The notes beneath the pieces were generated by a model. The model worked only from the letters and a program-made list of their open reading frames with translations, made no database searches and was not told the DNA's origin. Shown here one piece after another: positions 2,582 through 30,890 of a stretch of 30,917 nt of DNA. Position 1 is the stretch's first letter, and every line of letters starts with the position of its first letter. Location of the stretch: sequence record SRR31156797_4649. One strand, 5' to 3'. A program made the translations under genes and the position numbers.

Positions 2582-2584
2582 GTA

Positions 2585-4596: not shown

Positions 4597-4605
4597 AGAC
4601 TATAA

Positions 4606-5407: not shown

Positions 5408-5428
5408 GTAATTCAATCAATTTTATTG

Positions 5429-8865: not shown

Positions 8866-9035
8866 TTATTCCTAACCTAAACACTAATTATAACTGATGA
8901 AACCATACTTTATATAACTTAGATTTTTTTTGAATTCAATTTATTAGAAAATATTACAAACAAATGACTACCAATATTTTGGTGTAGTAATATTCGTTTT
9001 ACAATGAATTTCTTTAAGATTCTACATTTTTAAAT

Positions 9036-9043
9036 TATTTTTG
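9036..9043 (+). promoter_or_regulatory. Bacteroidota -7 element (TATTTTTG) upstream of the second ASST
   Basis: TAnnTTTG followed by C, with TTTA 19 nt upstream. Shares the 12-mer TATTTTTGCGTT with the 5542 site. Confidence 0.55.
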
Positions 9044-9132
9044 CGTTCCAACATTTAGGTTATTAATGTATAAAATCAAATAAATATAGAATATAAAACC
9101 ATTTTCTCTTTATATAATAAAGTCTCAGAAAA

Positions 9133-10410: not shown

Positions 10411-10452
10411 TTTCAATCTTAAGTCAAGATTTATAAATATGGGGTTGATAAT

Positions 10453-10460
10453 TATTTTTG
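10453..10460 (+). promoter_or_regulatory. Possible -7 element (TATTTTTG) upstream of the sulfotransferase
   Basis: TAnnTTTG with TTTA 19 nt upstream, 59 nt before ATG 10520. Confidence 0.45.
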
Positions 10461-10519
10461 GTGAAAGTCTGTCAATTGAATTTGTTGACGATTAAATATT
10501 TATTAAAGGTAATAAGCAT

Positions 10520-15625: not shown

Positions 15626-16147
15626 TTAGCCCATAAGCAATTTTATAAACTCGGGAACATACACGTGTAAATCGTTTGGATTACGACTCGACACTAAATT
15701 ATCATCTACTACCACAGGTTCATCCATCCAACTAGCCCCGGCATTTCTCATATCGTCTTTGATAGCAGGCGTGCTTGTAACTTTTTTACCCTGAAGAATA
15801 TTGGCCGAGATCAATACCCAACCGGCATGACATATCTGACCAATTGGTTTTTTTGCCTCATTCATTTGCTGAATAAAATGCAACACATAGCTATATCTAC
15901 GTAATTTGTCCGGAGCAAATCCGCCGGGAACCAAGACACCATCAAAGTCTTCAACCTGAAGATCAGAGTAGGCCATGTCGGCAGTTGCTTTCACTCCATA
16001 TTTACCCGTATACTCTTTACCAGCCTCTTCGCCGACAATCATCACCTCAATATTCTCTTCACGTAATCTTATTATTGGATACCATAATTCAAGGTCCTCG
16101 AATATTTCATGAACCAGGGTTACAACTCTAATTTTATTGGGTTCCAT
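15626..16147 (-). CDS. pfpI: PfpI/DJ-1 family (type 1 glutamine amidotransferase-like) protease/deglycase
   Basis: FEDLELWYP, VPGGFAPD, ICHAG nucleophile elbow, VVDDNLVSSR.P.DL. Confidence 0.92.
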   Translation of the reverse strand: MEPNKIRVVTLVHEIFEDLELWYPIIRLREENIEVMIVGEEAGKEYTGKYGVKATADMAYSDLQVEDFDGVLVPGGFAPDKLRRYSYVLHFIQQMNEAKKPIGQICHAGWVLISANILQGKKVTSTPAIKDDMRNAGASWMDEPVVVDDNLVSSRNPNDLHVYVPEFIKLLMG

Positions 16148-16152
16148 GTCTT

Positions 16153-16161
16153 CCTCCTTTT
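16153..16161 (-). promoter_or_regulatory. Canonical Shine-Dalgarno site for pfpI
   Basis: AAAAGGAGG, 5-nt spacer, then ATG at 16147. Confidence 0.7.
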
Positions 16162-16166
16162 AAAAA

Positions 16167-16592
16167 TTAATAAACACAAGGGATAATTCTATATGTTTTA
16201 AAAAACTCAACTTCATATTCTTCAAAATGTGTACTAAGATGCTTCTCCTCAAAATTCATTTTAAACAAGAGCACTATCACTATACCTAAAAAATATAATC
16301 CGAACATCCAATTAGGATTATCAATAAAATAGGATAGCGCAAACAGTATAACTGAAGTATACATAGGATGCCTCAAATACCTGTAGGGCCCACTCCGTAT
16401 AATAGTAGATCCATCTCTTAAATAAGGAAATACGTTAATTTTAGTATGTCGAAATACATATATTGACCATAGTCCAAGAACAACTGAAAGAATTAGAATA
16501 ACCTGCCCTAAAATAGATTGAGGTAAAAACGGCGGTGTAAAAATGATTAGCCCTATTCCTGCAAATTGTAAAAATGTATAAATGTATCCCAT
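16167..16592 (-). CDS. Isoprenylcysteine carboxyl methyltransferase / PEMT-family membrane protein
   Basis: GPYRYLRHPMY, EEKHL, RIIP..Y motifs and several TM helices. Confidence 0.88.
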   Translation of the reverse strand: MGYIYTFLQFAGIGLIIFTPPFLPQSILGQVILILSVVLGLWSIYVFRHTKINVFPYLRDGSTIIRSGPYRYLRHPMYTSVILFALSYFIDNPNWMFGLYFLGIVIVLLFKMNFEEKHLSTHFEEYEVEFFKTYRIIPCVY

Positions 16593-16653
16593 ACTTTTTA
16601 TGGTATGACATTTATAGTCTCAAATTGTTTGTGAAGCCAATAGAATAAAAAAA

Positions 16654-18465
16654 CTATTTAATTTTAATTCCAAAGATTGTAATGTCATCAAGCTGCTCCT
16701 CATCGCCCCTCCAATTTTGATATTCATCAATAAGAAATTCTTTCTGTTTACTCATAGCTTTTTCAGAAATGTTATGCAATAAATCAAAGAATCTTCTGGA
16801 CTGATATTTTCGACCCTTTTCACCACCAAACTGATCTTTATAACCATCAGAAAAAAGATATATTTTATCGCCTGGCACTACATCATAGGATTCGGCATTA
16901 AATTCTCTTTCACTCATATAATAACCAATTGGATTGTAAACAGGTTTCAATAGTTTAAATTCTCCATTAGAAATAAGTAAGGCACTTAAATTTGCACCGG
17001 CATAATGTAATTTGTAATCATTCTTATCATACACGCATACAGCCATATCCATACCATCATGATGTCGCGATTCACTAAATACAGACTTGAACTGAACCCT
17101 CAATTTTTCCAAAATACGATTTGGTTTAGATAAATCTGTTGTAGCTATTACTTCTTGCAATAATTTAACTCCTAACATTGTTAAAAAACCACCTGGAACA
17201 CCATGGCCTGTACAATCTGCAACCGCAAAAATGGATAAGTCATCAGTCTCTTTGTAATAATAAAAATCACCTGAAACAATATCCTTAGGTTTAAAAATTA
17301 CAAAGTTCTCATAGTGCTCGTTAATATTATCGCTAATTCTCAGTACAGCTTCCTGAATTATTCGCGCATACTCAATACTATCCATCATATTTTGATGGGT
17401 TTCTTCAATGCGTTGGTTTTTAACCGCAACCTCCTCAAGTACAGCCTTTAACTCATCAGCATAGTCCTGTAATTCTCGCTGATTTTCATCCAATTCCAGA
17501 TTTTTTCGCTTAAGTTCATCATTAAACTGTGACTGAAGTTCATTTTTTTCAATGAGCGTTTTAGCTTGCTCATTCATCATATCCTCTTGTTGTTTTCTGG
17601 CAGTGATATCTACTAAAAATATTAGTATTGCAGGCTTTCCATCCCATAATAAAAATACAGCATTGATTTCGATCCAAATAACCTCGCCATTTCTCTTTAC
17701 TACCCGGAAAGAATACTTAGTTGGCACCTCCTCACCACGCATTCTTTTGGCATAATTATTCATCACAAATTCTTTGTCTTGATGATAAATAATTTTTTCA
17801 AACTTCGATTCAAAAAGCTCCTTTTGACTATAACCTAAGACGTCATACGTAGCAGGATTGGCATATTTGATGCGTTGGTCCTGAAGAATAAAGATAGCCT
17901 CAACACTATTATTTAGAATACTATCAAGTTTATATTTGCTTTCAAGAACTTCTCTCTCGGCAATTTTACGCTTGGTTACATCCATCATAATAGAAAATGA
18001 TTGCAATGGTTCTCCATTTTGATCATATGAAACTTCTGAGGATATTAAAACAACAATTACTTCACCATTCTTTTTAATCATTTCCGCCTCAAACTCACTT
18101 AAGTAACCATTCTTGAGCAATTCATTATATTTTTCCCTATACCTCTCACGCAAATTACCAGCAAAAAAGTTTTCAGACTTCTTTCCCAATACCTCTTCCT
18201 CTGTATAGCCTAAAATTTTTAACCAAAAATTATTTACAAATAATAATTTTCCTTCCAGATCAATGCTATGCATCATTATAGGGGAATTATCAAATAGCTT
18301 CTTGAATATTGCATCGCCCTTCGTGCAAATATCCTTACTTAATTGCCGATTGCGCTTAATAATGAGTAACGAAAAAACAATTAAAATCAATACGAAAATG
18401 GCCAATAAAGAAATTACTAGCAAATCATTTCTATGCAACCAATCTATTTTAGTTAATATGAGCAT
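16654..18465 (-). CDS. Membrane-anchored PAS-PAS / coiled-coil / SpoIIE (PP2C, RsbU-like) phosphatase
   Basis: N-terminal TM and two PAS/PAC domains. PKDIVSGDFY, ADCTGHGVPG, DGMD, FSDGYKDQFGG, QLDDIT motifs. Confidence 0.92.
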   Translation of the reverse strand: MLILTKIDWLHRNDLLVISLLAIFVLILIVFSLLIIKRNRQLSKDICTKGDAIFKKLFDNSPIMMHSIDLEGKLLFVNNFWLKILGYTEEEVLGKKSENFFAGNLRERYREKYNELLKNGYLSEFEAEMIKKNGEVIVVLISSEVSYDQNGEPLQSFSIMMDVTKRKIAEREVLESKYKLDSILNNSVEAIFILQDQRIKYANPATYDVLGYSQKELFESKFEKIIYHQDKEFVMNNYAKRMRGEEVPTKYSFRVVKRNGEVIWIEINAVFLLWDGKPAILIFLVDITARKQQEDMMNEQAKTLIEKNELQSQFNDELKRKNLELDENQRELQDYADELKAVLEEVAVKNQRIEETHQNMMDSIEYARIIQEAVLRISDNINEHYENFVIFKPKDIVSGDFYYYKETDDLSIFAVADCTGHGVPGGFLTMLGVKLLQEVIATTDLSKPNRILEKLRVQFKSVFSESRHHDGMDMAVCVYDKNDYKLHYAGANLSALLISNGEFKLLKPVYNPIGYYMSEREFNAESYDVVPGDKIYLFSDGYKDQFGGEKGRKYQSRRFFDLLHNISEKAMSKQKEFLIDEYQNWRGDEEQLDDITIFGIKIK

Positions 18466-18570
18466 TTGTATAAATGCAGAGTGTAATATTCAATGGTTAA
18501 AAATTCCTCTAAGATAATCCAACGTGTTTAAAATGATATTATTCTACATAACCAACACGATAATTACACT

Positions 18571-18601
18571 CAAATGTAATTTAATTGCTAATAATATGCA
18601 A
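18571..18601 (-). promoter_or_regulatory. Bacteroidota promoter (TTG-N20-TACATTTG) for the SpoIIE gene
   Basis: -7 box at 18571-18578 and TTG at 18599-18601, with canonical spacing. Confidence 0.6.
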
Positions 18602-18668
18602 TCTTGAAATAAAAAAATATATGGGTAAATTAACCTGAATTTGAAGTCTAAATCAGTGTTCCCTGATT

Positions 18669-19580
18669 TTATATACGGTATATTGTTAAATTATTGCTCT
18701 CCACATAGTTTAATAACTCACTATTATTCAATGCAAAAACCATCAAAAATCCACCACCACCGCTACCACACAATTTCATTATCCAACCATTTCGATTTAA
18801 TCCAGTTTCCCAATGCTTTTTCATTGATTCCGGAATCATCTCACTCAAATTTGCGTATTGCCAAAGCGACAATTCTTTTAATAACTTTTGAAAGTTGGGA
18901 TCATTTGATTTGTATATGGAGTCAATAACCTTATTAACCAATGTGGAATATTCGCGATGATTTAATACGCCCTGATCAACTTTAGCCAGATAAGACTTAA
19001 CCAGAGGAGCTGTTTCTGACACCTGACCTGTATCAATCAGATAAACGCCACTTACTCCATTGTGCTCAAAATCTGGATGTTTCACCTCTACAAATGAATT
19101 ACTTTCAAATAGTAAAGGTTGGTTAAAAAATGCTACCAGGGGATCAATACCAGATGATTTTCCGTGAAAAAAGCTCTCCATAGCAGCTAATCTTTCCCTT
19201 ATATTTAAATCCCCTTCATTATAAACATATTTATCATAAATAGCGGCAATTAAAGCTCCGGAACTACCTACACCATAGCCCTGTGGAATATTTGAATCAA
19301 AGAATAATCCTGATTCAATATCATTCAAGAAACGATCAGTTTCAATTTTAAATTCCGAAAGGTGAGCACCAAAATTCTGAGATAGGAAACCAGCGTAATT
19401 TTTCAGATTCCTATTGGAAATAACTGCAGCTCTATTTTCATTTGATTTTAAATATTTAAACTGTCCACTATATTTTTTCAAAGGAATTGCCAACGCTTTT
19501 GATTGATGAATAATACTATACTCCCCAAAAAGCATCAGTTTGGCATAAAAAGATTTGTTATTTAGGTCTTTACCTATCAC
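18669..19580 (-). CDS. Mevalonate-kinase-family GHMP kinase (Bacteroidota type)
   Basis: GTG start overlapping the mvaD stop. KLMLFGEY, IPQGYGVGSSGA, FHGKSSGIDP, KLCGSGGGG. Confidence 0.88.
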   Translation of the reverse strand: MIGKDLNNKSFYAKLMLFGEYSIIHQSKALAIPLKKYSGQFKYLKSNENRAAVISNRNLKNYAGFLSQNFGAHLSEFKIETDRFLNDIESGLFFDSNIPQGYGVGSSGALIAAIYDKYVYNEGDLNIRERLAAMESFFHGKSSGIDPLVAFFNQPLLFESNSFVEVKHPDFEHNGVSGVYLIDTGQVSETAPLVKSYLAKVDQGVLNHREYSTLVNKVIDSIYKSNDPNFQKLLKELSLWQYANLSEMIPESMKKHWETGLNRNGWIMKLCGSGGGGFLMVFALNNSELLNYVESNNLTIYRI

Positions 19581-20659
19581 TCAAAAAGTTGTTTTGGTCC
19601 CATTCCTGTCTCATCATCAATAACATCCATATCCAATTTGGAGTCCATAACCCAATTACTGATGAAATCCTGTATTATTGAACGATGAGCTTCGGCGTAA
19701 AGTAAATGAATATTTGGACCTGCGTCAATGGTATAGGCAGCCATTAGCCCCTTTCCTTTGCGAAAATCATCAAAGTCATTTAAAAATTTAATAGTAGAAG
19801 GAGCCAGCAATAAAACCGGACTTGCCGATGCCATCATTAAACCATGCAAAGACATAGCCTCATTCTCAGTTACCTGCTGCCAAGTCTCAAAATCACCATG
19901 TTCCATTGCCGGGAGTAACCTTTTCATATTTTCCTCAACCTGAGCAATGCGACCTGCTCTGTAAGGATGGGTATTCATTAGGGAATGACCGGCAGTACTT
20001 CCAACTTTCTTTGGTTTCTTACTAAATATCAAAATACTATCATAAACATTTAAGAAGTCATTATGAGGTTTAAAAGGTACAGCAAATTCATCTTGCCCCA
20101 ATCCATTTGCTCCTTTGCCCCAAATTGCATAAGGACCATATACAGATCGACATGCGCTACCTGATCCAAGACGTGCAAAATGAGATGCTTCTTGGATAAA
20201 TCCATCATAATCGGATTCAAAATACCCCATTTCTTTAATTACTGAAAGAAGACTCAGAGCTAATGCACTCATTCCACTAGCCGAGGAGGCTATACCTGTT
20301 GAATGAGGAAAAGTATTGATACTGTTTATCTTAAAAAACAATTCGTTGATAACTGGATATTTTTCAGCAAATCGATTGATTAACGCAGTAACTTTTTTCT
20401 CAAAGCCCTCACTAACTTTATTTTGAGATAGGTAAAAATCAAAATTCTTCGAATTAGGATGCTCTCTTAGTGACCATTGAATTTCAGTTTGTGTAAAAGC
20501 ATATTTCAATGTCATACTGATGGAAGGATTCATTGGGATCTGGTCTCCACTTTTACCCCAATATTTAATCAATGCAATGTTAGATGGACTTCTCCACTCT
20601 AACTTTCCGCTATATTTATGGGCTCCGGCATTTATCTTTATATCCTTAAATCCATTCAT
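19577..20659 (-). CDS. mvaD: Diphosphomevalonate decarboxylase
   Basis: SPSNIALIKYWGK, NPSISMTL, GIASSASG, ARLGSGSACRS, TIDAGPNIH. Confidence 0.93.
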   Translation of the reverse strand: MNGFKDIKINAGAHKYSGKLEWRSPSNIALIKYWGKSGDQIPMNPSISMTLKYAFTQTEIQWSLREHPNSKNFDFYLSQNKVSEGFEKKVTALINRFAEKYPVINELFFKINSINTFPHSTGIASSASGMSALALSLLSVIKEMGYFESDYDGFIQEASHFARLGSGSACRSVYGPYAIWGKGANGLGQDEFAVPFKPHNDFLNVYDSILIFSKKPKKVGSTAGHSLMNTHPYRAGRIAQVEENMKRLLPAMEHGDFETWQQVTENEAMSLHGLMMASASPVLLLAPSTIKFLNDFDDFRKGKGLMAAYTIDAGPNIHLLYAEAHRSIIQDFISNWVMDSKLDMDVIDDETGMGPKQLFE

Positions 20660-20661
20660 TA

Positions 20662-21579
20662 CTATTCTCCTTTATGCTTCACGATTTCTAACCAATTAAA
20701 CATTGTCGGCCTTCCTTTGCCTTCAAAATATGATATGACATCAGCGCCTGACATTGGACTTACTGCCAACATAAAATCACCTCCCCACGCACCTAATGAT
20801 TTCACCTCACCATCAAAATCCTTATATTCGTCGGCTATGGTTTTCATATCTAAACACTTACTCATCAATTTTTCATGTTCTTTCATGAGTTTCATTATCG
20901 TATCTATTGAGTCAGCTTTAATCCATTCATTGCTAATTTCAGTGATTCGATTTATCACTTTATCATCAACTCTTTTACTTCTGAAACCACGTATTGCATC
21001 AGCAGTATTCATTTTATTCTCTTGAAATATAAACCACATATTTTTTCGATAATCAGGCTTATAGTCGACCTCTTCATATTCAGGAAGATTACTTTCATTT
21101 TTATAGAGAATACCTTTTTCGGCATTGGCACAAGCGATATCGTAACCAGAACCTCCTCCCACTTTCATGTTCACCCAAAATGGATTTACATCTGCCCATT
21201 TGCACAAGTTTGCAATAAAAGAAGAGCTACTTCCCCATCCATAATTCATTGGCAAATCAATAGTTGCAGAAGCCTCAGCTCCTTCACCAACTAAGAAATC
21301 ACTTTTTTGATCACGAATGGCTAAAAATACCGATTTGATCCAGTCAGATTTTTCCTTATCACTTGTTTCCAGGACATTGAAAGTTTCAGTTTCAAAAATG
21401 GCATGAAAAATAATATTATCTTTAAACAGTGTGCGCCAATAAACCAGCGGATGTGATACAGATTCAATTTCTAGCTCCTGACCAAAAATTAAGGGTACTG
21501 CAAATGTTGTAGCACCCTGCAAAGCCAGATATTCTCCTGTAAGCATCAATTTCCCATTTGACCTATATTTTTCTGACAT
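20662..21579 (-). CDS. GYDIA-family GHMP kinase (second kinase of the mevalonate pathway)
   Basis: SNGKLMLTGEY, GWGSSS, GSGYDIACA, KSLGAWGGDF. Lies directly after HMG-CoA reductase. Confidence 0.88.
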   Translation of the reverse strand: MSEKYRSNGKLMLTGEYLALQGATTFAVPLIFGQELEIESVSHPLVYWRTLFKDNIIFHAIFETETFNVLETSDKEKSDWIKSVFLAIRDQKSDFLVGEGAEASATIDLPMNYGWGSSSSFIANLCKWADVNPFWVNMKVGGGSGYDIACANAEKGILYKNESNLPEYEEVDYKPDYRKNMWFIFQENKMNTADAIRGFRSKRVDDKVINRITEISNEWIKADSIDTIMKLMKEHEKLMSKCLDMKTIADEYKDFDGEVKSLGAWGGDFMLAVSPMSGADVISYFEGKGRPTMFNWLEIVKHKGE

Positions 21580-21630
21580 ACACTACCTTATTTGTTGTTT
21601 TGTTTAAAGATAAGAAATTTAAAGTTAATG

Positions 21631-22929
21631 CTAATTCTCTTGCAGAAAATCACGAACTGCTTTCACTGAAACAGTTCTATTCTCAAAATAAATCTTAGCA
21701 GCTTTCTTTTGCTTCTCATTGGCGTTCTCAGCAATTAAAATATTATCAAGGTGCAATTTCATATGTCCTTTTTGAATTCCTGTGGTAATGAGTGAACCCA
21801 CAGCAGCAAAGTTATTGGCCAATCCGGCAGCTGTGGCTATTTTCATTAGTTCATCGGCAGATGGATTGCCCAACATCTCCAAAGCTAAAGAAGCTGTTGG
21901 ATGTACTTTTGTCAAACCTCCCACTGTACCTAGTGCATATGGCAATGTGAGTTTCATCCAGAATTCACTATTTTCAATACCCGCTGATGATAATGATCTG
22001 TACTGACCTGATCTTGCCGCATAAGCATGCACTGCCGCTTCTGCTGCTCGAAAATCATTACCTGTAGCTAAAATCACAGCATCAGAACCGTTCATTATTC
22101 CTTTATTATGGGTCACAGCTCTACTCACATCCAGCTCTGCTAACTTAACAGCCTTTACAAACTTTTTCGCAAAATCCTCAGGGTTCATTTCTTTATCCCA
22201 TGTCAATTGATCAATTGGACAACGAACCTCTAATGTTACGTAGTTTTTAGGTGTGTAATTAGATAATATGGCCATCAAAATTTCAGGGACTGACTTACCA
22301 TGTTTATCGGCAAAATTAGAGATTTGTCCGGCCATTTCTTCCAACACAGAATTAATGAAATTAGCACCCATTGAGTCCACTGTATTCACAAAAACCGATA
22401 ATTTCATAGAAGTAGATGACAGTTCATTTAACTGCTCCAATTCAAGATGATCAATACCACCTCCCCGCTTTTCCATATTGGCTGTAAGAGGCTTTACTTT
22501 ATCTGTTAGATATGAAAAAAAATCTTCTTTATGAGCAAGTAACCAATCAATGCTATCCAGCCACTCAAAGTAAACCTGACCGTTTTTTAAACTTTGCTGA
22601 TTTACTGTTTTAAACCCTCCACGGGCTTGCCAAAATGATGCTGCTTTAGATGCAGCTGCCACAACTGAACTCTCTTCAATTACAGCCGGCACATGATAAA
22701 TTTGGCCATCAATACTCATGTTAGGAATTACACCAAACGGCAGTGCGTGATTCGTAAGTGTATTTTCGCTAAAACCCTCAAATTGCTGCTGAAGATTTGT
22801 ATCGTTAAAATGAAATTTATTAAAATCTCTCACACGAGATTGGTCCCCAAAGCATTCTTTCGCAATAATCTCTCTTTTTTGCGAGGGGCTCTTCTTTGAG
22901 AATCCTGACAATTTGGGTTTGGGCTTCAT
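21631..22929 (-). CDS. mvaA: Class II HMG-CoA reductase
   Basis: SEN, EESSVVAAAS, DSMGAN, AILSN, THNKGIMNG, GNDFRA, GTVGG, GIQKGHMKLH. Confidence 0.95.
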   Translation of the reverse strand: MKPKPKLSGFSKKSPSQKREIIAKECFGDQSRVRDFNKFHFNDTNLQQQFEGFSENTLTNHALPFGVIPNMSIDGQIYHVPAVIEESSVVAAASKAASFWQARGGFKTVNQQSLKNGQVYFEWLDSIDWLLAHKEDFFSYLTDKVKPLTANMEKRGGGIDHLELEQLNELSSTSMKLSVFVNTVDSMGANFINSVLEEMAGQISNFADKHGKSVPEILMAILSNYTPKNYVTLEVRCPIDQLTWDKEMNPEDFAKKFVKAVKLAELDVSRAVTHNKGIMNGSDAVILATGNDFRAAEAAVHAYAARSGQYRSLSSAGIENSEFWMKLTLPYALGTVGGLTKVHPTASLALEMLGNPSADELMKIATAAGLANNFAAVGSLITTGIQKGHMKLHLDNILIAENANEKQKKAAKIYFENRTVSVKAVRDFLQEN

Positions 22930-22945
22930 AAATGATGCGAGATAA

Positions 22946-24100
22946 CTATTTCAATCCAATATGTCTACCAATAACTAATTTAAGTATTTCAGAGGTTCCT
23001 TCACCAATTTGCAAAATGCGCTGATCACGGTAAAAGCGCTCAATATCATATTCCTCCATCAAACCGTAAGCACCAAATATTTGCACAGCCTCGTCGGCAA
23101 CTTCTTTAGCAGCCTCACTACAATAATACTTGGCCATAGCAGCCTGCTTACCAAATGGTTTACCCTTATCTTTCAACCAAACGGCATTATAAAGTGTATT
23201 ACGAGCTAACTCAATTTTAGTGGCCATTTCAGCTAATTTGAATGCTGTATTTTGGAACTTTGCAATTGGGCGGCCAAACTGTTCACGTTTTTGAGCATAT
23301 GCCATAGCCATTTCAAATGCTCCTTGAGCTAATCCAAGACCCATTGCACCAATGGTTAAACGACCTGAATCCAGTGTCTCAAGCATCATATTGCTTCCTT
23401 TACCTCGTTCTCCCAAAAGATAATCCTCCGGCACTTCTACATTGTCAAACATGAGTTTACCAGTATCTGCAGCACGCCACATCATTTTCGTATTGATCTT
23501 TTCGCGTGTAAATCCATCGCGAGCAGTCTCCATGAGAATAATGGATAATTCTTTCTTACCATCTTTTTCACCGGTAATAGCCTGAACGGTAGCACCTAAA
23601 GTTAATGGTCCACCTCCATTACTGATATAAATTTTATCGCCGTTTACAATCCATTTGCCATCTTTTAATTCAGCGCGTGTTTGTGTTCCCCGACTATCAG
23701 AACCTGCGTTTTCCTCAGTCAAAGCAAATGCCCACACATTATCGCCATTGATTAACTGGGGTAACCACTTCATTTTTTGCTCTTCAGTACCAAAATAATA
23801 TATTGGTCCAAGTCCCAAACTGTTATGACTGGCCACTGTGGATGCCTGCGAGCCATCGATCCTGGCAACTTCTTCCACTGTTATAACCAATGATAGATAA
23901 TCTAATCCCTGTCCACCATACTTTTTAGGTAGAAACTGACCAAAAAATCCGGCTTGTCCCATTTTTTTTGTCAAGTCAACAGAGAATTCTCTATTTTGAT
24001 CAAGGGTACGAGCCACAGGCTTTATTTCTTTTTCGGCAAATTCACGAACTTTCATTCGTAAAGCTTCGTGATCTTGATTTGTAAAAGGCGTTATCATCAT
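22946..24100 (-). CDS. Acyl-CoA dehydrogenase, probably acting on isovaleryl-CoA from context
   Basis: FALTEENAGSD, NGDKIYISN, REQFGRPI..FQ, QIFGAYG, IGEGTSE. The ORF-track start at 24106 is TTG; I prefer ATG at 24100 or 24097. Confidence 0.9.
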   Translation of the reverse strand: MMITPFTNQDHEALRMKVREFAEKEIKPVARTLDQNREFSVDLTKKMGQAGFFGQFLPKKYGGQGLDYLSLVITVEEVARIDGSQASTVASHNSLGLGPIYYFGTEEQKMKWLPQLINGDNVWAFALTEENAGSDSRGTQTRAELKDGKWIVNGDKIYISNGGGPLTLGATVQAITGEKDGKKELSIILMETARDGFTREKINTKMMWRAADTGKLMFDNVEVPEDYLLGERGKGSNMMLETLDSGRLTIGAMGLGLAQGAFEMAMAYAQKREQFGRPIAKFQNTAFKLAEMATKIELARNTLYNAVWLKDKGKPFGKQAAMAKYYCSEAAKEVADEAVQIFGAYGLMEEYDIERFYRDQRILQIGEGTSEILKLVIGRHIGLK

Positions 24101-24110
24101 AATCAATTTT

Positions 24111-26045
24111 TTATTCGAATTCCATTAAAATCTGGCCATCAGAAACTTGTTCACCTTCCTTAACCAGTATATTTTTAACTTTAGCATTTCCGGTAGCATG
24201 TAAATGGTTTTCCATTTTCATGGCTTCTATTACCAACAGGGTATCACCTTCTTTAATATCTGCTCCCATGGGCGCATTGATACTTAATACTTTGCCAAAC
24301 ATTGGCGCTTCAAGGGTTACTTGCCGACCACTTACAGCCTGATTCTTTTTACCCGACTTAGGTAACAACCTTTCTATACGTATTGTTTTACCTTTGTCAA
24401 ATATCCACAATTTGCCTTTGTGTTTGTATACAAAAAGCTCCACTTTATTTCCATTCAAATCAAATCCAACTGTATTGTCTTTCCATTGAATTTCATCCAC
24501 CTCAAAAAAGCCTCCTTGATACTCAAAATTAAGCTTTTTATTGACTTTTGACCATTTAATATTGTAGTTATCGTCATTGATCTGGATTTTCCAATTGACA
24601 GGAATTTGTCTAAAGTACCCTGTATTCCATGCATTATTTTCTTGATTTAAGTTAAGAAAACTGTCAGAAATTAATGCTGCTATATATTTCTCAGGATTTT
24701 CATTTTTTGTTTCGTATTGATAAGATTCTTCAATAAACCGGGTATGAAAATTATTGCCTATAAACACTTCAGAATTAGCTAACTCTCTAAGAAAATGTTT
24801 ATTCGTTTCTACTCCTGCTAACCTTGTTTCATCAAGAACCAAACTCAACCTTTGAATAGCTTCATTTCTGTCATTTCCCCAAACTGAAATTTTCGATATC
24901 ATAGGATCAAAGTTAGGACTTGCAAACCCTCTATTTTCAATGGAAGAATCAATCCTTAACCAATCGTAATGAGGAAAGCTCAAATGATAAACCGGACCTG
25001 CATCCGGAAGAAAGTCTTTATGTGGTTTTTCAGCGTACAAACGCGCTTCTATGGCATGACCATTAAAAGTAATTTGATCCTGGGAAAAGGTAAGTGGTTT
25101 ACCTGCCGCTATTTCAATTTGCAACCTCACAATATCCCTCCCTGTAATCATTTCTGAAACAGGATGTTCTACCTGTATTCGGGTATTCATTTCCAAAAAC
25201 CAGAACTTTCCACTTTCATCAAATAAAAATTCAACAGTTCCAGCACTCCGATACTTCATCGCTTTGGCTAATTGCACTGCATATGATGTTACTTCCTCTC
25301 TTTGTTCTTGCGTTAAAATAGCAGCTGGCGCTTCTTCTAACACTTTTTGATGGCGACGCTGCATAGTACAATCACGTTCTCCCAAATGAATGGCATCACC
25401 GTTACCATCACCAATTACTTGTACTTCAATATGTCTGGCACTAGTCACTAATCGTTCCACATATACATCATCATTTCCAAAATAAGCTTTCGACTCTCGT
25501 GCAGTTTGAACTAATGCCTGCTCATAATTTTCAGCCTTGTACACCTTCTTCATTCCTTTTCCACCACCTCCGGCAGCAGCCTTTATAAGCACAGGATAGC
25601 TTAATTGATCTTTAAGTTTAAGTAATTCGTCTTTGGAACCTTTATGCATTTTTTGAACAGGGATTCCTGCTTTTTCTGCATAAGCAGAAGCGTTCAACTT
25701 ATTTCCCATGGCCTCAATGGATTCAGCTCTTGGTCCAACAAATGCCATTCCTGCTTCTTCTACTTTCTCGGCAAAAAGTGCATTCTCAGACAAAAATCCA
25801 TAACCGGGATGAATCGCATCAGCTTTGCATTGCAAGGCGAACTCAACTATTTGGTCTATATTTAAATAGCTCTGACTTAATTCTGATTCGGCAAATTTGA
25901 ATGACTCATTTGCTTCTTTCACCCAGGGAGCATTTTCTTCCTCAGCAGTGCACAACGCAACTGTTTCAATTCCCATTTCACGGGCTGTTCGAATTACCCT
26001 TCTGGCAATTTCACCACGATTTGCTATAAGTATTTTCCTAATCAT
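24111..26045 (-). CDS. liuD: Biotin carboxylase / biotin-carrier (alpha) subunit, 3-methylcrotonyl-CoA carboxylase-like
   Basis: ILIANRGEIA, HPGYGFLSEN, GGGGKGM, RDCTMQRRHQK, EMNTRIQVEHP, EAMKM biotin site. Confidence 0.88.
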   Translation of the reverse strand: MIRKILIANRGEIARRVIRTAREMGIETVALCTAEEENAPWVKEANESFKFAESELSQSYLNIDQIVEFALQCKADAIHPGYGFLSENALFAEKVEEAGMAFVGPRAESIEAMGNKLNASAYAEKAGIPVQKMHKGSKDELLKLKDQLSYPVLIKAAAGGGGKGMKKVYKAENYEQALVQTARESKAYFGNDDVYVERLVTSARHIEVQVIGDGNGDAIHLGERDCTMQRRHQKVLEEAPAAILTQEQREEVTSYAVQLAKAMKYRSAGTVEFLFDESGKFWFLEMNTRIQVEHPVSEMITGRDIVRLQIEIAAGKPLTFSQDQITFNGHAIEARLYAEKPHKDFLPDAGPVYHLSFPHYDWLRIDSSIENRGFASPNFDPMISKISVWGNDRNEAIQRLSLVLDETRLAGVETNKHFLRELANSEVFIGNNFHTRFIEESYQYETKNENPEKYIAALISDSFLNLNQENNAWNTGYFRQIPVNWKIQINDDNYNIKWSKVNKKLNFEYQGGFFEVDEIQWKDNTVGFDLNGNKVELFVYKHKGKLWIFDKGKTIRIERLLPKSGKKNQAVSGRQVTLEAPMFGKVLSINAPMGADIKEGDTLLVIEAMKMENHLHATGNAKVKNILVKEGEQVSDGQILMEFE

Positions 26046-26821
26046 GATGTAATATTTTTAGTTTCCAAAAAACTTCTAATTCTGGATTGAGCCGACTCAC
26101 TGGCCCGTGCTTCTGCAATTACATTGGCAGTATAACTTTCTTCAGTATCAGCATCCATATTTTCTGCTATGTCATGAATCAATTTCTTGGTTGATTGCAC
26201 TGCATTCATATCATTGCCGCTTACAGATTCAACCAAATAAGCAAGCTTTTCAGGTAATGCCTCAGCTGTTACTATTTCATCAGCAAAACCCGCACTTAAT
26301 AACTCATCTTCACCTAACATTTTACCTGTTAGCATCCACTGCCTCGCTTTAATTTCTCCAATTCTTTGAATTACTACAGGAGCAACTGTAGCAGGCACTA
26401 AACCAAGCTTTACTTCACTAAAACGGATTTTCACATCTTGGTCAATCCATACAAAATCAGCTCCGGCAACTAGTCCTAAAGCACCACCAATAGCAGCACC
26501 ATGCACCCATGCAACAGTTATCATTGGCAATGTACTGAACAATTTAAAAACCCTATATAACTTGCGACTTTCCTCTACATTCTCCTCATGTGTTGCATTA
26601 ATCGCAGAAGCCATCCAATTTAAATCAGCACCAGCGCTAAAAACATCTCCTTCTCCTCTCACTAGTAAAAATTTACATTGTTTTTCCTTGTGAGCATGTT
26701 CCAGAAAGTAAATCAACTCATCCAGCATCAAATCATTCATTGCATTGCGGACTTTAGGTCTGCTCAATCTAAGTACTGAGTGATTTTTGTATTTGTCGAT
26801 ATTTATGGTTTGGTATTGCAT
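26042..26821 (-). CDS. liuC: Enoyl-CoA hydratase, 3-methylglutaconyl-CoA hydratase-like
   Basis: RPKVRNAM, FSAGADLNWM, AIGGALGL, FSEVKLGLVPA. The likely start is MQYQTI at 26821, 4 nt after the upstream stop. Confidence 0.85.
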   Translation of the reverse strand: MQYQTINIDKYKNHSVLRLSRPKVRNAMNDLMLDELIYFLEHAHKEKQCKFLLVRGEGDVFSAGADLNWMASAINATHEENVEESRKLYRVFKLFSTLPMITVAWVHGAAIGGALGLVAGADFVWIDQDVKIRFSEVKLGLVPATVAPVVIQRIGEIKARQWMLTGKMLGEDELLSAGFADEIVTAEALPEKLAYLVESVSGNDMNAVQSTKKLIHDIAENMDADTEESYTANVIAEARASESAQSRIRSFLETKNITS

Positions 26822-26825
26822 AACT

Positions 26826-28433
26826 TTACATTCTATATACACCGCTTTTGGGTTCACCCCACAACTTATTTCTACTCGCTTCAATTCCAATTGCCAGATA
26901 CAATCGCGTTTGCAATGGATCTATAATTCCATCATCCCAAACACGAGAAGTACTGTAGAGAGCTGAACTCTCATTTCTATATTTGGCTAAAATTTCGTCA
27001 TATATCTTTTGATGTTCCTTTTCATCAGGCTTATGCCCATGCTTTTTCATGGCTGACTCTTTTATAGCTGTTAAAACACCTGCTGCCTGCTCGCCTCCCA
27101 TTACGCCTATTTTAGAGGTTGGGTACATCCATAAGAAGTTTGGATCGTAAGCACGTCCGGCCATAGCATAGTTTCCTGCGCCATAACTACCTCCTGTTAT
27201 GACAGTAAATTTAGGCACATTGGCATTAGCTACAGCATGAATCATTTTAGCTCCATCACGTGCTATACCTTCATGCTCATATTTTTTACCTACAATAAAG
27301 CCTGTTATATTTTGTAAAAATACGATGGGCACTTTTCTAAAATTACACAACTCTATAAAATGAGCTGCTTTTCTCGCTGTTTCTGCGTAAATAATACCGT
27401 TATTGGCAATAATACCAACGGGATAACCCATAATATGAGCAAACCCTGTCACAATAGAAGGCGCATAATCAGCTTTAAATTCATGAAATTCACTTTCATC
27501 AACCAATCGTGCAATAATTTCTCTGGCTTCAATTGGCTTATGACCTTCTAATGGTAAGATTCCATAAAGTTCCTCCGGGCTATATTTAGGTTCTTTGGAT
27601 TCCTTAATATCCAAAGGTTGTTTGGATGGCTTCGGTAATGTTGAAACAATATCGCGACAAATTTCCAATGCATGTTCATCATTTTTTGCCAAATGATCGG
27701 CCACACCGGAGATTTTTGCATGCACATCGCCACCGCCAAGCTCTTCATCAGTAACTTCCTCACCTGTAGCAGCTTTTACCAAGGGTGGACCACCAATAAA
27801 AATAGTTCCCTGATTGCGCACAATAATGGTTTCATCGCTCATTGCAGGCACGTAAGCTCCACCGGCAGTACATGATCCCATCACGACAGCAATTTGTGGA
27901 ATTCCAAGAGCTGATAATTGAGCCTGATTGCTAAAAATCCGTCCAAAATCATCTCTATCCGGAAAAACTTCTGATTGCACAGGTAAAAATATACCACCAC
28001 TATCTACCAAATAGACACAAGGAAGATTATTTTGCATAGCAATTTCCTGCGCACGAATATGTTTACGAATGGTTTCTTTCACATAGGTACCACCTTTAAC
28101 AGTAGCATCATTAGCCACAATCACCACTTCACGTCCATGCACAATTCCTAACCCGGTTACAACTCCACCTGAAGCAAATGCATCATCATATTGTCCATTT
28201 GCAGCTAGTGCAGTGAACTCAATAAACGGCGTATTCTCGTCCAATAAAAGCTCAATCCTTTCACGAGCCAAAAGTTTACCACGCTCTTTATGAATTGTAA
28301 CAGCCTTTTCACGACCTTCTTCAGGTAAAGCTGCAAATCTTTTGTTTAAGTCATTAACAGCTTCTGAAACTTTTTCAAACCGAAGTTTAAAATCGTCGTT
28401 ATTAACTAGTATGTTTGATTTTATATGTTTCAA
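26826..28433 (-). CDS. liuB: Carboxyltransferase (beta) subunit, 3-methylcrotonyl-CoA carboxylase-like
   Basis: TTG start. RGKLLARERI, ANDATVKGGTY, MGSCTAGGAYVPAMSDE, FLQNITGF, GSYGAGNYAM, WDDGIIDP, GVYRM C-terminus typical of MCC-beta. Confidence 0.9.
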   Translation of the reverse strand: MKHIKSNILVNNDDFKLRFEKVSEAVNDLNKRFAALPEEGREKAVTIHKERGKLLARERIELLLDENTPFIEFTALAANGQYDDAFASGGVVTGLGIVHGREVVIVANDATVKGGTYVKETIRKHIRAQEIAMQNNLPCVYLVDSGGIFLPVQSEVFPDRDDFGRIFSNQAQLSALGIPQIAVVMGSCTAGGAYVPAMSDETIIVRNQGTIFIGGPPLVKAATGEEVTDEELGGGDVHAKISGVADHLAKNDEHALEICRDIVSTLPKPSKQPLDIKESKEPKYSPEELYGILPLEGHKPIEAREIIARLVDESEFHEFKADYAPSIVTGFAHIMGYPVGIIANNGIIYAETARKAAHFIELCNFRKVPIVFLQNITGFIVGKKYEHEGIARDGAKMIHAVANANVPKFTVITGGSYGAGNYAMAGRAYDPNFLWMYPTSKIGVMGGEQAAGVLTAIKESAMKKHGHKPDEKEHQKIYDEILAKYRNESSALYSTSRVWDDGIIDPLQTRLYLAIGIEASRNKLWGEPKSGVYRM

Positions 28434-28477
28434 AACTTAATCAATTTGTATATAAATACCGAACATCAATAAAGATA

Positions 28478-28513
28478 TTTTGTTTAACCAAGAATAAAAT
28501 TAGTTAAACAAAA
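28478..28513. repeat. Perfect 11-bp inverted repeat TTTTGTTTAAC-N14-GTTAAACAAAA
   Basis: Arms at 28478-28488 and 28503-28513, about 45 nt upstream of the liuB start. Confidence 0.8.
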
Positions 28514-28633
28514 ACAATAGATAAAGTTACTAAAAATATCATTTCAAGACTACTGCACGTTTTAGTTTTACACTTTTCTTAAACAATTGCTTTGTTAGGC
28601 TGTATGTTTTTATGAATAGTCAAAACATGAAAT

Positions 28634-28664
28634 TTTGCTTTGGAATAAATATCCCTTAACTTCA
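28634..28664 (+). promoter_or_regulatory. Possible promoter for the otsA-otsB fusion (TTTG-N19-TAACTTCA)
   Basis: -33 TTTG with canonical spacing to an imperfect -7 box, 18 nt before ATG 28683. Confidence 0.4.
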
Positions 28665-28682
28665 TAGAAAATTTAAATAGAC

Positions 28683-30890
28683 ATGAGTAAAACAATTATT
28701 ATATCTAACAGATTACCGCTGCAAATAAGTATCGAAAAAGATATCATCAAAGCCACACCCAGTGTGGGAGGATTAGCCACGGGAATGAAATCTGTTCACA
28801 AATCAGGTGATAGTGTATGGATTGGTTGGTCTGGATTAACCGAAGAAACCATTCCTGATCATTTAAGAACTAAGGTAGACGAAGCTTCAGCAAAAGAAGC
28901 TTGTATCAATGTTCCTCTAACAGAAGAGGATATTGAAGAATACTATTACGGTTTTAGTAACAAAACCATATGGCCCTTATTTCATTATTTTACTGAATTT
29001 GCAGAATATCATAATCACTATTGGGAAAAATATAAAGAAGTCAATCAAAAGTTTGCCGATGTGGTGGCCAAACATATAAAACCCGGTGATAAAGTTTGGG
29101 TTCATGATTACCAACTATTGCTCCTGCCCCAACTCATCAAAGATCAATTTCCGGATGTAGCTATTGGGTTTTTCTTACATATTCCATTCCCGTCTTTCGA
29201 GGTTTTCAGAATTTTACCATGGCGTAATGAATTATTGGAGGGAATGCTTGGAGCCGACCTAATTGGCTTTCACACATACGATTACGAACGTCACTTTTTC
29301 AGTTCTGTGCGTCGATTACTGGGTCATGAATTGAATTTTAATGAGATTTTAGTTAACAACCGAATCATTCGGGCAGACATATTCCCCATGGGAATTGATT
29401 ACGATAAATTTTACAATGCATCGGCAAATCAACAACGCAAATCTGTTACCGACAGAACTCAATTGCAGCAAGAATTAGATAAACACCAATTAGTGAACCG
29501 TGAGGTAAAATTCATCCTTAGTATTGATCGGTTAGATTATACCAAAGGAATTCAAAACAGGCTGCGTGCATTTGAACATTTCCTTGAAAAATATCCTCAA
29601 TATATTGGTAAAGCTACACTTATTATGCTTTGTGTGCCATCTCGCCAAAATGTGGACATGTATCAGCGCATGAAAAGTGAAATTGACGAGTTGGTAGGTC
29701 GAATAAATGGAAATTACAGCACAGTAAACTGGACACCTGTTTGGTATTTTTACAGATCAATGCCTTTTGAAAACCTCATCGATTTGTATTCTTCAAGTGA
29801 TGTGGCATTACTTACGCCTATTAGAGACGGAATGAACCTGGTAGCCAAAGAATACGTGGCTTCACAAATTGACAGCAAAGGAGTGCTTATTTTAAGTGAA
29901 ATGACCGGTGCTGCCAAAGAGATGAGTGAAGCTTTGATTATCAATCCGAATAACATGGATGAAATCGCAGATGTAATTCATGAAGCACTTTCTATGCCTG
30001 ATGAAGAACAAATTCAGCGCATAGAAACCATGCAAAACCGCTTGAAACGTTATAATGTGGAGAAATGGGCTGCAGATTTCTTTGAAGACCTCAACGAAGT
30101 GCAAGAGCTTCAATCACAAAGTAGTACTAAAAAATTGACCAGCAAAGTTATCAAAAAAATTACCGATAAATATCATCAAACTAAAAAACGTATTCTATTT
30201 GTTAATTACGATGGTACATTGGTAGCATTTAAAGAGAATCCGAAACGCGCGGTACCAACCGAAGAAGTAATTGAAATACTAGACAAATTAGCCTCTGATG
30301 AGAAAAACCAAATTGTAATTGTAAGCGGCCGCGATAAATCCACTTTTGACAAATGGTTTAAAGATAAAAACTACTATTTTATTGCAGATTATGGTTCAAC
30401 CACAAAAGCGCCCGGTGAGAACTGGAAAGAAACTGAAGACATTGACACTTCATGGAAAAAACTGATGTTACCAATCATGGAATTTTATGAAGACAGAACA
30501 CCCGGTACTTTTTTAGAAGAGAAAAACTACTCATTAGTTTGGCATTATCGCAAAGCTGATCCCGATTTAGGTCTCGGTAGAGCCAACGAATTGAAAGATC
30601 AGTTAACCAGTCTCATTGCCAATCATGACCTGGAAATTATTGATGCCAATAAGTCCATTGAGATAAAAAACTCAACTACAAGTAAAGGCAAGGTTGTGCA
30701 CCAAATGCTTCAAAATGAAGGTTATGACTTTGTTTTAGGAATAGGTAATGACTGGACCGATGAACAAATGTTCCGTGAAATGCCAGATGATGCCTGCACA
30801 ATTAAAGTTGGAAAAACCAATACAGCTGCAAACTTTAATACAGGCACATATCGGAATGTATTGGATTTTTTGAAGAATATGGTCAATTAA
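28683..30890 (+). CDS. otsA: Fused trehalose-6-phosphate synthase (GT20) / HAD trehalose-phosphatase-like protein
   Basis: SNRLP, GGLATG, WVHDYQL, HIPFP, DRLDYTKG, RDGMNLVAKEY are intact. The C-terminal HAD domain has NYDGTL, VSGR, WHYR, KG and GNDWTDE. Confidence 0.93.
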   Translation: MSKTIIISNRLPLQISIEKDIIKATPSVGGLATGMKSVHKSGDSVWIGWSGLTEETIPDHLRTKVDEASAKEACINVPLTEEDIEEYYYGFSNKTIWPLFHYFTEFAEYHNHYWEKYKEVNQKFADVVAKHIKPGDKVWVHDYQLLLLPQLIKDQFPDVAIGFFLHIPFPSFEVFRILPWRNELLEGMLGADLIGFHTYDYERHFFSSVRRLLGHELNFNEILVNNRIIRADIFPMGIDYDKFYNASANQQRKSVTDRTQLQQELDKHQLVNREVKFILSIDRLDYTKGIQNRLRAFEHFLEKYPQYIGKATLIMLCVPSRQNVDMYQRMKSEIDELVGRINGNYSTVNWTPVWYFYRSMPFENLIDLYSSSDVALLTPIRDGMNLVAKEYVASQIDSKGVLILSEMTGAAKEMSEALIINPNNMDEIADVIHEALSMPDEEQIQRIETMQNRLKRYNVEKWAADFFEDLNEVQELQSQSSTKKLTSKVIKKITDKYHQTKKRILFVNYDGTLVAFKENPKRAVPTEEVIEILDKLASDEKNQIVIVSGRDKSTFDKWFKDKNYYFIADYGSTTKAPGENWKETEDIDTSWKKLMLPIMEFYEDRTPGTFLEEKNYSLVWHYRKADPDLGLGRANELKDQLTSLIANHDLEIIDANKSIEIKNSTTSKGKVVHQMLQNEGYDFVLGIGNDWTDEQMFREMPDDACTIKVGKTNTAANFNTGTYRNVLDFLKNMVN

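Follow-up and report, generated by a model that had tools for sequence, protein, structure and literature searches.

We report a cluster of eight genes in which leucine degradation (liu) genes run directly into mevalonate pathway (mva) genes. The cluster occupies positions 28433 to 18669 on the minus strand of a 30,917-nucleotide stretch of marine Bacteroidota DNA (sequence record SRR31156797_4649; the whole stretch is hereafter called the window). As read from its sequence, the cluster quite probably encodes a complete route from isovaleryl-CoA to isopentenyl diphosphate (IPP), in which leucine catabolism would replace thiolase and HMG-CoA synthase (HMG, 3-hydroxy-3-methylglutaryl). The first-pass annotation of this DNA had proposed that leucine feeds isoprenoid synthesis through the operon, and comparative genomics lends that proposal good support. 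According to the usual view, the mevalonate pathway is entered from acetyl-CoA via HMG-CoA synthase, and leucine is a minor side entry known only from labelling. Our observations of gene identities, order and spacing, of the conservation of the linkage, and of phyletic patterns suggest that a bacterial group uses the leucine skeleton as a regular, sometimes sole, entry into mevalonate. The liu-mva cluster probably explains how many relatives of the window's organism form isoprenoid units without HMG-CoA synthase.

Genes were called using Pfam, NCBIfam, and comparison with solved structures, and 27 open reading frames (ORFs) of the window were scanned with Pfam. The cluster and its boundaries, in gene order, comprise the following features:

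28434..28682, no strand: divergent AT-rich intergenic region between liuB and otsAB, predicted promoter region (249 nt, sequence read)
26826..28433, minus strand: liuB, methylcrotonyl-CoA carboxylase beta subunit (carboxyltransferase), 535 aa, TTG start (PF01039, 503 bits)
26042..26821, minus strand: liuC, crotonase, putative 3-methylglutaconyl-CoA hydratase, likely start ATG at 26821 (PF00378, 122 bits)
24111..26045, minus strand: liuD, methylcrotonyl-CoA carboxylase alpha subunit, 644 aa (Biotin_carb_N, CPSase_L_D2, Biotin_carb_C, and Biotin_lipoyl domains)
22946..24106, minus strand: acad, acyl-CoA dehydrogenase, putative isovaleryl-CoA dehydrogenase, start TTG 24106 or ATG 24100 (three ACAD domains)
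22930..22945, minus strand: spacer separating the liu from the mva genes (acad/hmgr), 16 nt, sequence read, hairpin-free in the scan
21631..22929, minus strand: hmgr, class II HMG-CoA reductase, 432 aa (PF00368, 272 bits; TIGR00532, 253 bits against a cut-off of 260)
20662..21579, minus strand: GYDIA-family GHMP kinase, putative phosphomevalonate kinase (NF040656, 279 bits against a cut-off of 225)
19577..20659, minus strand: mvaD, diphosphomevalonate decarboxylase, 360 aa (TIGR01240, 185 bits against a cut-off of 171; PF22700 and PF18376)
18669..19580, minus strand: mk, mevalonate-kinase-like GHMP kinase, 303 aa (TIGR00549, 74 bits, under the cut-off of 163)

In the proposed route, isovaleryl-CoA, the CoA ester of the leucine or 2-ketoisocaproate skeleton, would derive from imported leucine or from self-made 2-ketoisocaproate. 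The acyl-CoA dehydrogenase would convert it to 3-methylcrotonyl-CoA, the LiuB/LiuD biotin carboxylase would add CO2 to give 3-methylglutaconyl-CoA, the crotonase would hydrate the latter to HMG-CoA, the class II reductase would turn HMG-CoA into mevalonate, and the two GHMP kinases together with MvaD would carry mevalonate on to IPP. What would fix the direction is the ATP-grasp carboxylase together with the irreversibility of the kinase and decarboxylase steps. Since HMG-CoA reductase stands in the place that a lyase usually holds in a liu cluster, the leucine pathway would act as the "upper" mevalonate pathway. In textbook chemistry, C1 of mevalonate is the carboxyl group that the carboxylase introduced, and the decarboxylase removes it again, so that all five carbons of IPP would stem from C2-C6 of leucine. 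Such a carbon flux from leucine to isoprenoids is what we infer from the gene content of the cluster.

Conservation of the liu-mva linkage and distribution of HMG-CoA synthase and lyase

Genome-wide searches were made in the genomes of relatives, and the window's own organism was represented by the window ORFs. Our sample of the order to which genome G002 and the Salinivirgaceae relatives belong comprised 301 genomes, most of them metagenome-assembled genomes (MAGs) of unknown completeness, and 92 of these were reductase-positive (i.e., they had a match to the window's reductase at E <= 1e-20). Up to 9 kb on each side of the reductase gene was taken in 60 genomes, and together with loci L001 and L002 this gave 62 loci, which were searched by tblastn with the window proteins. 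L001, from a Salinivirgaceae MAG, and L002, from a Salinivirga sp. MAG, hold the closest reductases in species genomes (72% and 68% identity, respectively).

The identical eight-gene order was found in L002 and in L046, the latter from a 4.81-Mb single-contig Salinivirga-like genome (G262). Because this order recurs in Salinivirga and is extended in many diverged relatives, the arrangement is not attributable to chance. More specifically, hmgr, the GYDIA kinase gene, mvaD, and mk occur together in 52 of the 62 loci, always with mk as the last gene of the block, and 6 of the other ten loci end at a contig edge. The GYDIA kinase gene adjoins hmgr in 57 of the 62. Genes of the liu set lie directly upstream of hmgr on the same strand in 23 loci, 21 of them including liuB, whose orthologs there show 56-76% identity; in L086 the dehydrogenase gene alone is upstream, and in L096 liuD and the dehydrogenase gene. 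In 15 of the 32 further reductase-positive genomes, liuB shares contig and strand with the reductase gene and lies 4-7 kb upstream of it. Collectively, the two halves are linked in 38 of the 92 reductase-positive genomes (23 from loci and 15 from coordinates), some of the 54 "unlinked" genomes being on short contigs and possibly misclassified. The liu-mvaA synteny to which the first-pass annotation had drawn attention is therefore conserved, and it is kept in lineages whose reductases are only 44-51% identical to that of the window.

In a 63-row tree of the reductases, many deep, long branches carry the linked state, and the unlinked rows fall mostly into one derived clade of ~30. The two states require at least 3-4 changes on this tree, a number that none of 500 label shuffles matched or undercut. 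The position of the linked state on deep, long branches argues that the linkage is old and has been retained, rather than reflecting near-copies. Upstream of hmgr in 26 unlinked loci, the recurrent genes are those for IDI-2, GroEL/GroES, and unrelated genes.

L001 retains hmgr, the GYDIA kinase gene, mvaD, and mk, while its liuB, liuC, and liuD-like genes run divergently from hmgr and the dehydrogenase gene is absent. Its liuD-like gene is shortened (496 aa, 37% identity; L001 1-7000). Elsewhere in the same genome are two tandem HMGL-like genes (L003/L004), and the mevalonate block occupies the spot that HMGL-like genes hold in many unlinked genomes. In one linked genome (G299:C10:55844-57082), the reductase frame contains five in-frame stops (1 TGA, 2 TAG, and 2 TAA) and liuB is intact 5 kb upstream; the mevalonate half may be decaying there.

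Neither HMG-CoA synthase nor an HMGL-family lyase was found by Pfam among the 27 window ORFs, in line with what had been noted from the window at first sight. The same held for the synthase at the scale of the order, where PF01154 was matched in none of the 92 reductase-positive genomes; its matches were confined to 3 of the 301 genomes, all at ~30 bits and all reductase-negative, and control genomes with a known synthase did match. No synthase was found in either of the two closest MAGs or in the single-contig G262. The TIGR01835 (bacterial; 9 key genomes) and TIGR00748 (archaeal; 10 genomes) models, run on sets that included G262, revealed only FabH-like N-terminal partial matches of 17-63 bits, against cut-offs of 353-360. 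Two 383-aa frames with TIGR01835 scores of 55 and 41 bits, from genomes lacking the methylerythritol phosphate (MEP) pathway, were rejected as synthases, their 338-aa ORFs being FabH (ACP_syn_III domains). The TIGR00748 matches, which reach 63 bits, belong in this category too, and the E. coli and B. thetaiotaomicron controls show them as well.

An ortholog of the carboxylase beta subunit (>=58% identity) was found in 86 of the 92 reductase-positive genomes versus 45 of the 209 reductase-negative ones (Fisher p = 6e-34). Of the remaining six reductase-positive genomes, four have only a paralog with 47-49% identity, and the other two gave no match at E <= 1e-100. At its cut-off, the NF004283 model of HMG-CoA lyase was matched in none of the 301 genomes. 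Full-length HMGL-like genes (141-204 bits) are present in 79 of the 301, and their distribution follows the linkage: they occur in 0 of the 38 linked versus 38 of the 54 unlinked reductase-positive genomes (p = 2e-13), and in 35 of the 45 genomes with the carboxylase and without the reductase. At least 37 genomes have an HMGL-like gene no more than 15 kb from liuB, in many cases as its divergent neighbour, and no lyase was found in G002 (E <= 0.001) or G262 (E <= 1e-40). The disappearance of the lyase-like gene where liu is fused to mva is what the initial idea of a reductase standing where a lyase is expected predicts. L001 conforms to this pattern, as liu and hmgr differ in orientation there and HMGL-like genes are present in that genome.

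Isoprenoid supply in relatives and across the class Bacteroidia

Of the checks proposed in the first pass, those that were carried out all favoured its interpretation. The window's nearest relatives carry MEP genes (DXS and IspH), and therefore the leucine route there would supplement MEP, not replace it. IspH is present in 279 of the 301 order genomes; of the 22 in which it was not found, 12 have the reductase. Six reductase-positive genomes (G096, G126, G153, G165, G224, and G246) lack IspH, IspG, and Dxr; MvaD was found in all five of the six that were tested for it. On the reductase tree they are spread over three or more places, a pattern that points to MEP having been lost repeatedly. 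In these six, a predicted synthase-less mevalonate route is the only detectable one, and their combination of a lower mevalonate pathway with neither MEP genes nor synthase means that some non-synthase source of HMG-CoA must exist. The leucine route thus appears to be an extra supply beside MEP in the window's clade and the sole supply in some relatives. That leucine carbon might be the only isoprenoid entry throughout the MEP-less, synthase-less Bacteroidia is a more tentative proposal, whose chances we place slightly below even. A fused E1 alpha-beta 2-oxoacid dehydrogenase is present in G002.

In a class-wide sample of 151 genomes, the reductase occurs in 36 and a real synthase in 7 (69-82 bits), all 7 among the 36. 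With G002 excluded, IspH is missing from 20 of the 35 reductase-positive genomes, and within these 20 the synthase is missing too in 13. A carboxylase-beta-like gene is present in 34 of the 35, including all 13 without IspH and synthase; these genes show 42-51% identity and are not adjacent to the reductase gene. In the order sample, 6 of the 92 reductase-positive genomes are MEP-less, and in the class sample 13 of the 151 genomes are, the latter as judged by IspH alone. Other Bacteroidia reductases score 426-437 bits on PF00368 (frames of 523-612 aa), some with a second copy in frames of 765-853 aa; examples are G354, G402, G372, G395, G431, G446, and G303, and these named genomes all have IspH. 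At least two predicted reductase types are present within the class Bacteroidia.

If this bolder proposal of leucine carbon as the only entry holds, a mevalonate pathway without any acetyl-CoA entry would exist across a large part of the class Bacteroidia, and the undecaprenyl phosphate, menaquinone, and carotenoids of MEP-less lineages would all be made from leucine carbon, imported or self-made. The fused operon would then be genomic evidence for a third "upper" mevalonate pathway.

No IPP isomerase gene was found in the window's cluster. In all 19 linked loci that have a 1-kb gap between acad and hmgr, this gap holds a same-strand ORF of 329-345 aa. It is a divergent IDI-2, as indicated by TIGR02151 scores of 203 bits in one linked and 178 bits in one unlinked locus against a cut-off of 281, two genes having been family-checked. 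The IDI-2 family is also found upstream of hmgr in 10 of the 26 unlinked loci. It is missing from the acad/hmgr gap in the window, L002, L046, L060, and L096; in the Salinivirga clade, 3 of 3 genomes have an IDI-1 gene elsewhere and no IDI-2.

Cluster layout, transcription, and gene assignments

The eight ORFs are consecutive and co-oriented, with junctions of -4 to 51 nt. The liuB stop codon (TAA at 26826) is followed after 4 nt by the liuC ATG at 26821, and liuC and liuD overlap by 4 nt. The liuD stop at 24111 lies 4 nt from the acad TTG at 24106 or 10 nt from the ATG at 24100. Downstream of the 16-nt spacer, gaps of 51 nt (hmgr to the GYDIA kinase gene) and 2 nt (GYDIA kinase gene to mvaD) are followed by a 4-nt overlap of mvaD and mk. 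When liuC is taken to start at ATG 26821 and acad at ATG 24100, the spacing matches that read in the first pass (4, -4, 10, 16, 51, 2, and -4), and 5 of the 7 junctions are <=10 nt or overlapping. A terminator scan found no terminator-like hairpin in any of the seven junctions, which agrees with the earlier impression that there is no obvious internal terminator. Terminator-like matches numbered 16 versus 6.7 expected, and all eight minus-strand ones within 16000-29000 sit inside coding sequence. A sigma-70 scan was uninformative (47 matches versus 49.3 expected from shuffling), Bacteroidota promoters being outside the models of the scan. The intergenic region at 28434..28682 is the predicted promoter region of the cluster.

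Five marine metatranscriptome runs contain 21-39% of the region's words, and four of them, from two studies, were aligned to the region. Contigs from these RNA libraries bridge liuB/liuC (X2 record 6, X3 record 11, and X5 record 19), liuC/liuD (X5 record 18), and liuD/acad (X2 record 3, X3 record 9, and X5 record 15). The acad/hmgr junction is bridged once, by X5 record 13 (22897-23060, depth 3.25); X7 record 21 enters hmgr by 18 nt only and was excluded from the bridging count. RNA contigs give almost no cover of 18400-21500 (mk, mvaD, and most of the GYDIA kinase gene), and contigs cannot rank expression. We consider the cluster to be presumably co-transcribed.

Within the liu half, LiuB is of the methylcrotonyl-CoA carboxylase (MCC) type. 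Its best solved relative is the P. aeruginosa MCC beta subunit (3u9r_B, 650 bits over residues 14-535), with geranyl-CoA carboxylase beta at 454 bits and propionyl-CoA carboxylase (PCC) beta at ~260 bits. LiuD is not sharply separated by type, scoring 440 bits with human MCC alpha, 437 with P. aeruginosa MCC alpha, and 418 with PCC alpha; its full ATP-grasp biotin carboxylase points to an ATP-driven carboxylase. Chains of PDB entry 9tps, labelled "propionyl-CoA carboxylase beta" and "biotin carboxylase" (9tps_A / 9tps_G), match LiuB at 648 and LiuD at 456 bits. As these scores equal or exceed those of named methylcrotonyl-CoA carboxylases, the depositors' label may miss the subtype.

The crotonase fold of LiuC is certain, and its solved relatives are unnamed crotonases. 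The longest liuC ORF opens at TTG 26890, overlapping liuB. Among NCBIfam models, LiuC scores best with PRK07468 and PRK05674, which are of the gamma-carboxygeranoyl-CoA hydratase type (164 bits, both under cut-off), and we assign it from gene context as a putative 3-methylglutaconyl-CoA hydratase. The same acad is conserved in liu clusters of the order, with 57-81% identity when mva-linked and 63% when not. The substrate specificities given for the dehydrogenase and the hydratase are predictions.

In the mva half, the best solved relative of the reductase is 7n7s (352 bits), with the blocks EESSVVAAASK, DSMGANFIN, THNKGIMNG, GNDFRA, and QKGHMK aligned. MvaD scores 131 bits against solved 3lto, and the mk product 31 bits against the S. 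aureus mevalonate kinase 2x7i. The GYDIA kinase had no Pfam match, no solved sequence relative at E <= 0.01, and no match to a canonical phosphomevalonate kinase family. Its AlphaFold model (pLDDT 93) is equally close to mevalonate kinase and phosphomevalonate kinase folds, the nearest being 1kkh, a mevalonate kinase (TM 0.70), and 3gon, the phosphomevalonate kinase of S. pneumoniae (TM 0.71). By elimination, the GYDIA kinase is the putative enzyme of the phosphomevalonate kinase step.

Alternative readings, known systems, and neighbouring genes

Several points weigh against reading the cluster as a leucine-to-IPP route. The two halves are non-adjacent in 54 of the 92 reductase-positive genomes. 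The carboxylase is also present in 45 reductase-negative genomes, and its occurrence in these and in unlinked genomes indicates that liu genes clearly also serve plain catabolism. The completeness of the MAGs limits absences to "not found", and the p-values of 6e-34 and 2e-13 ignore shared ancestry. At the level of single genes, acad is nearer to short-chain/butyryl-CoA dehydrogenases (7szv, 341 bits) than to isovaleryl-CoA dehydrogenases (219-232 bits), LiuC and the mevalonate-kinase-like protein fall under every curated cut-off, and the window and Salinivirga clusters are without the IDI-2 gene that is typical of most linked clusters. In addition, the acad/hmgr bridge is a single low-depth contig, the RNA library may hold DNA, and a contig spanning two genes is not equivalent to one transcript.

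The non-adjacency, the carboxylase in reductase-negative genomes, and the unproven co-transcription would fit two independent units, in which liu serves leucine catabolism with an unrecognised lyase and mva is fed by an unrecognised, non-homologous HMG-CoA synthase; such a synthase replacement is proposed for Flavobacterium in the available text of PMC12016392. We consider this unlikely, given that no candidate gene is conserved beside the mva block in the 26 unlinked loci, that the linkage is retained across deep lineages, and that the genomes in which no lyase-like gene was found are precisely the linked ones (0 of 38), where independent units would make leucine catabolism a dead end. The liu half might also run in reverse, as in myxobacteria, with HMG-CoA undergoing dehydration, decarboxylation, and reduction to isovaleryl-CoA for the priming of iso-fatty acids and mva drawing on the same HMG-CoA pool. 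Bacteroidota produce iso-branched fatty acids from isovaleryl-CoA, and acad resembles butyryl-CoA dehydrogenases, which are able to work reductively. Although the myxobacterial pathway offers a precedent (PMC5389471), reversal is highly improbable: it requires a source of HMG-CoA, and no synthase was found; the biotin carboxylase domain is a full ATP-grasp one, such as decarboxylases do not have; and no AibA/AibB-like (CoA-transferase-like) gene was present among the scanned window ORFs, no genome-wide search for AibA/B having been made.

Even less probable is mevalonate salvage, in which the reductase would oxidise external mevalonate to HMG-CoA, as in Pseudomonas mevalonii. The best NCBIfam model for hmgr is indeed named "degradative" (TIGR00532, just below its cut-off at 253 bits), but the biosynthetic class II reductases of Gram-positive cocci match the same family, no lyase that could use the HMG-CoA was found in the window or in any of the 38 linked genomes, and the reductase is fixed beside two kinases and MvaD in 52 of the 62 loci, which is a biosynthetic set. 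The last alternative leaves the proposed function intact and divides the cluster into at least two transcription units, for example, by a promoter within the cluster, located either ahead of hmgr or in the 51-nt gap. We regard this as possible, though rather doubtful. Five of the seven junctions are tight or overlapping, no intergenic hairpin was found, and one RNA-library contig bridges acad/hmgr; on the other side, only the 16-nt and 51-nt spacers could carry signals, Bacteroidota promoters were outside the scan, and hmgr of L001 is divergent from liuB and so has its own promoter.

A leucine-to-IPP route combines parts of several known systems. The Pseudomonas liuRABCDE cluster serves leucine and isovalerate utilisation, and the window would take isovaleryl-CoA to HMG-CoA by its four steps (a putative dehydrogenase, the two carboxylase subunits beta and alpha, and a putative hydratase). 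Unlike that cluster, the window has neither LiuE lyase nor LiuR and has the reductase and lower mevalonate genes instead; its gene order is B-C-D-dehydrogenase, and its dehydrogenase falls outside the classical isovaleryl-CoA dehydrogenase clade. In Pseudomonas mevalonii, mvaAB encodes a class II reductase and HMG-CoA lyase for mevalonate catabolism. Both there and here a class II reductase is encoded together with other enzymes that handle HMG-CoA, but the P. mevalonii set is catabolic and ends in the lyase, whereas the window has no lyase and has kinases and a decarboxylase. The mevalonate operons of Gram-positive cocci and Flavobacterium resemble the cluster in their class II reductase, mevalonate kinase (putative in the cluster), MvaD, and second GHMP kinase, as well as in the IDI-2 present in most relatives. 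The cluster differs from operons of the mvaS, mvaA, mvaK1, mvaD, and mvaK2 type in that it is fused to liu and no synthase was found in 92 of 92 reductase-positive relatives, and its second kinase belongs to the uncharacterised GYDIA family, as opposed to the canonical phosphomevalonate kinase family of the cocci operons.

The proposed chemistry, from leucine to HMG-CoA in five steps and on to mevalonate, is that of the leucine shunt, which has been inferred for myxobacteria. According to section 3.1.2 of a review (PMC8791446), labelling has established the shunt in Leishmania and Halobacterium salinarum, and this review states that it had not been rebuilt in E. coli as of 2021. The shunt is also inferred for the archaeon Calditenuis in a 2026 paper (PMC12979851). 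Unlike these organisms, in which the normal acetyl-CoA entry runs alongside and the genes are scattered, the window has one cluster with both synthase and lyase missing, and some of its relatives are also without MEP. Alternative isovaleryl-CoA biosynthesis (AIB) in Myxococcus xanthus links HMG-CoA and isovaleryl-CoA via 3-methylglutaconyl-CoA and a crotonase (PMC5389471). AIB (MvaS, LiuC, AibA/B, and AibC) would thus have these intermediates and the crotonase in common with the window, yet it runs in the opposite direction and needs a synthase and a CoA-transferase-like decarboxylase, whereas the window has an ATP-dependent carboxylase.

Use of the mevalonate pathway without a synthase was described in 2025 for Flavobacterium sedimentum and other Flavobacterium, the replacement being unexplained in the available text (PMC12016392), and leucine is not mentioned in that portion of the paper. 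We found no published description of a liu-mva operon, or of leucine replacing the synthase in Bacteroidota, in a search that left most subscription journals outside, and in this respect the first-pass annotation, which knew of no dedicated bacterial operon for the leucine route, still stands. The chemistry is already known, and what appears to be new is the fused operon, the joint loss of synthase and lyase, and the wide distribution. If correct, the proposed route would explain the missing synthase of mevalonate-dependent Flavobacterium and give a function to the GYDIA kinase family. For marine and gut-related Bacteroidota, it would also mean that the synthesis of cell-wall carrier lipid and quinones is coupled to the metabolism of branched-chain amino acids. 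Isotope tracers based on leucine and lipids would then be interpreted differently in sediments and microbial mats, and terpenoid precursors could be made from isovalerate or leucine with a compact operon of natural origin.

Divergent from liuB, at 28683-30890, lies a gene for OtsAB, a fused trehalose-6-phosphate synthase/phosphatase (PRK14501, 1025 bits), the presence of which fits a salt-adapted organism. On the other side of the cluster, past a 203-nt gap, 16167-18465 encodes a PAS-PAS-SpoIIE/PP2C phosphatase and a PEMT/ICMT-family methyltransferase. L001, L002, and L046 also have the phosphatase gene downstream of mk, and L001 has the methyltransferase gene as well; a regulatory link of the two to the cluster is possible. 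Farther away, 1469-5416 holds a sugar-modification set with two tandem FdtA/WxcM-like isomerases, a MaoC-like hydratase, an HpcH/HpaI (citrate-lyase-beta-like) aldolase, a PglD-like hexapeptide acyltransferase, and a DegT aminotransferase. That enzymes acting on CoA esters occur within this amino-sugar cluster hints at an unusual N-acyl group. Finally, two arylsulfotransferase-like (ASST) genes and a Sulfotransfer_3 gene lie in tandem at 8077-11914.

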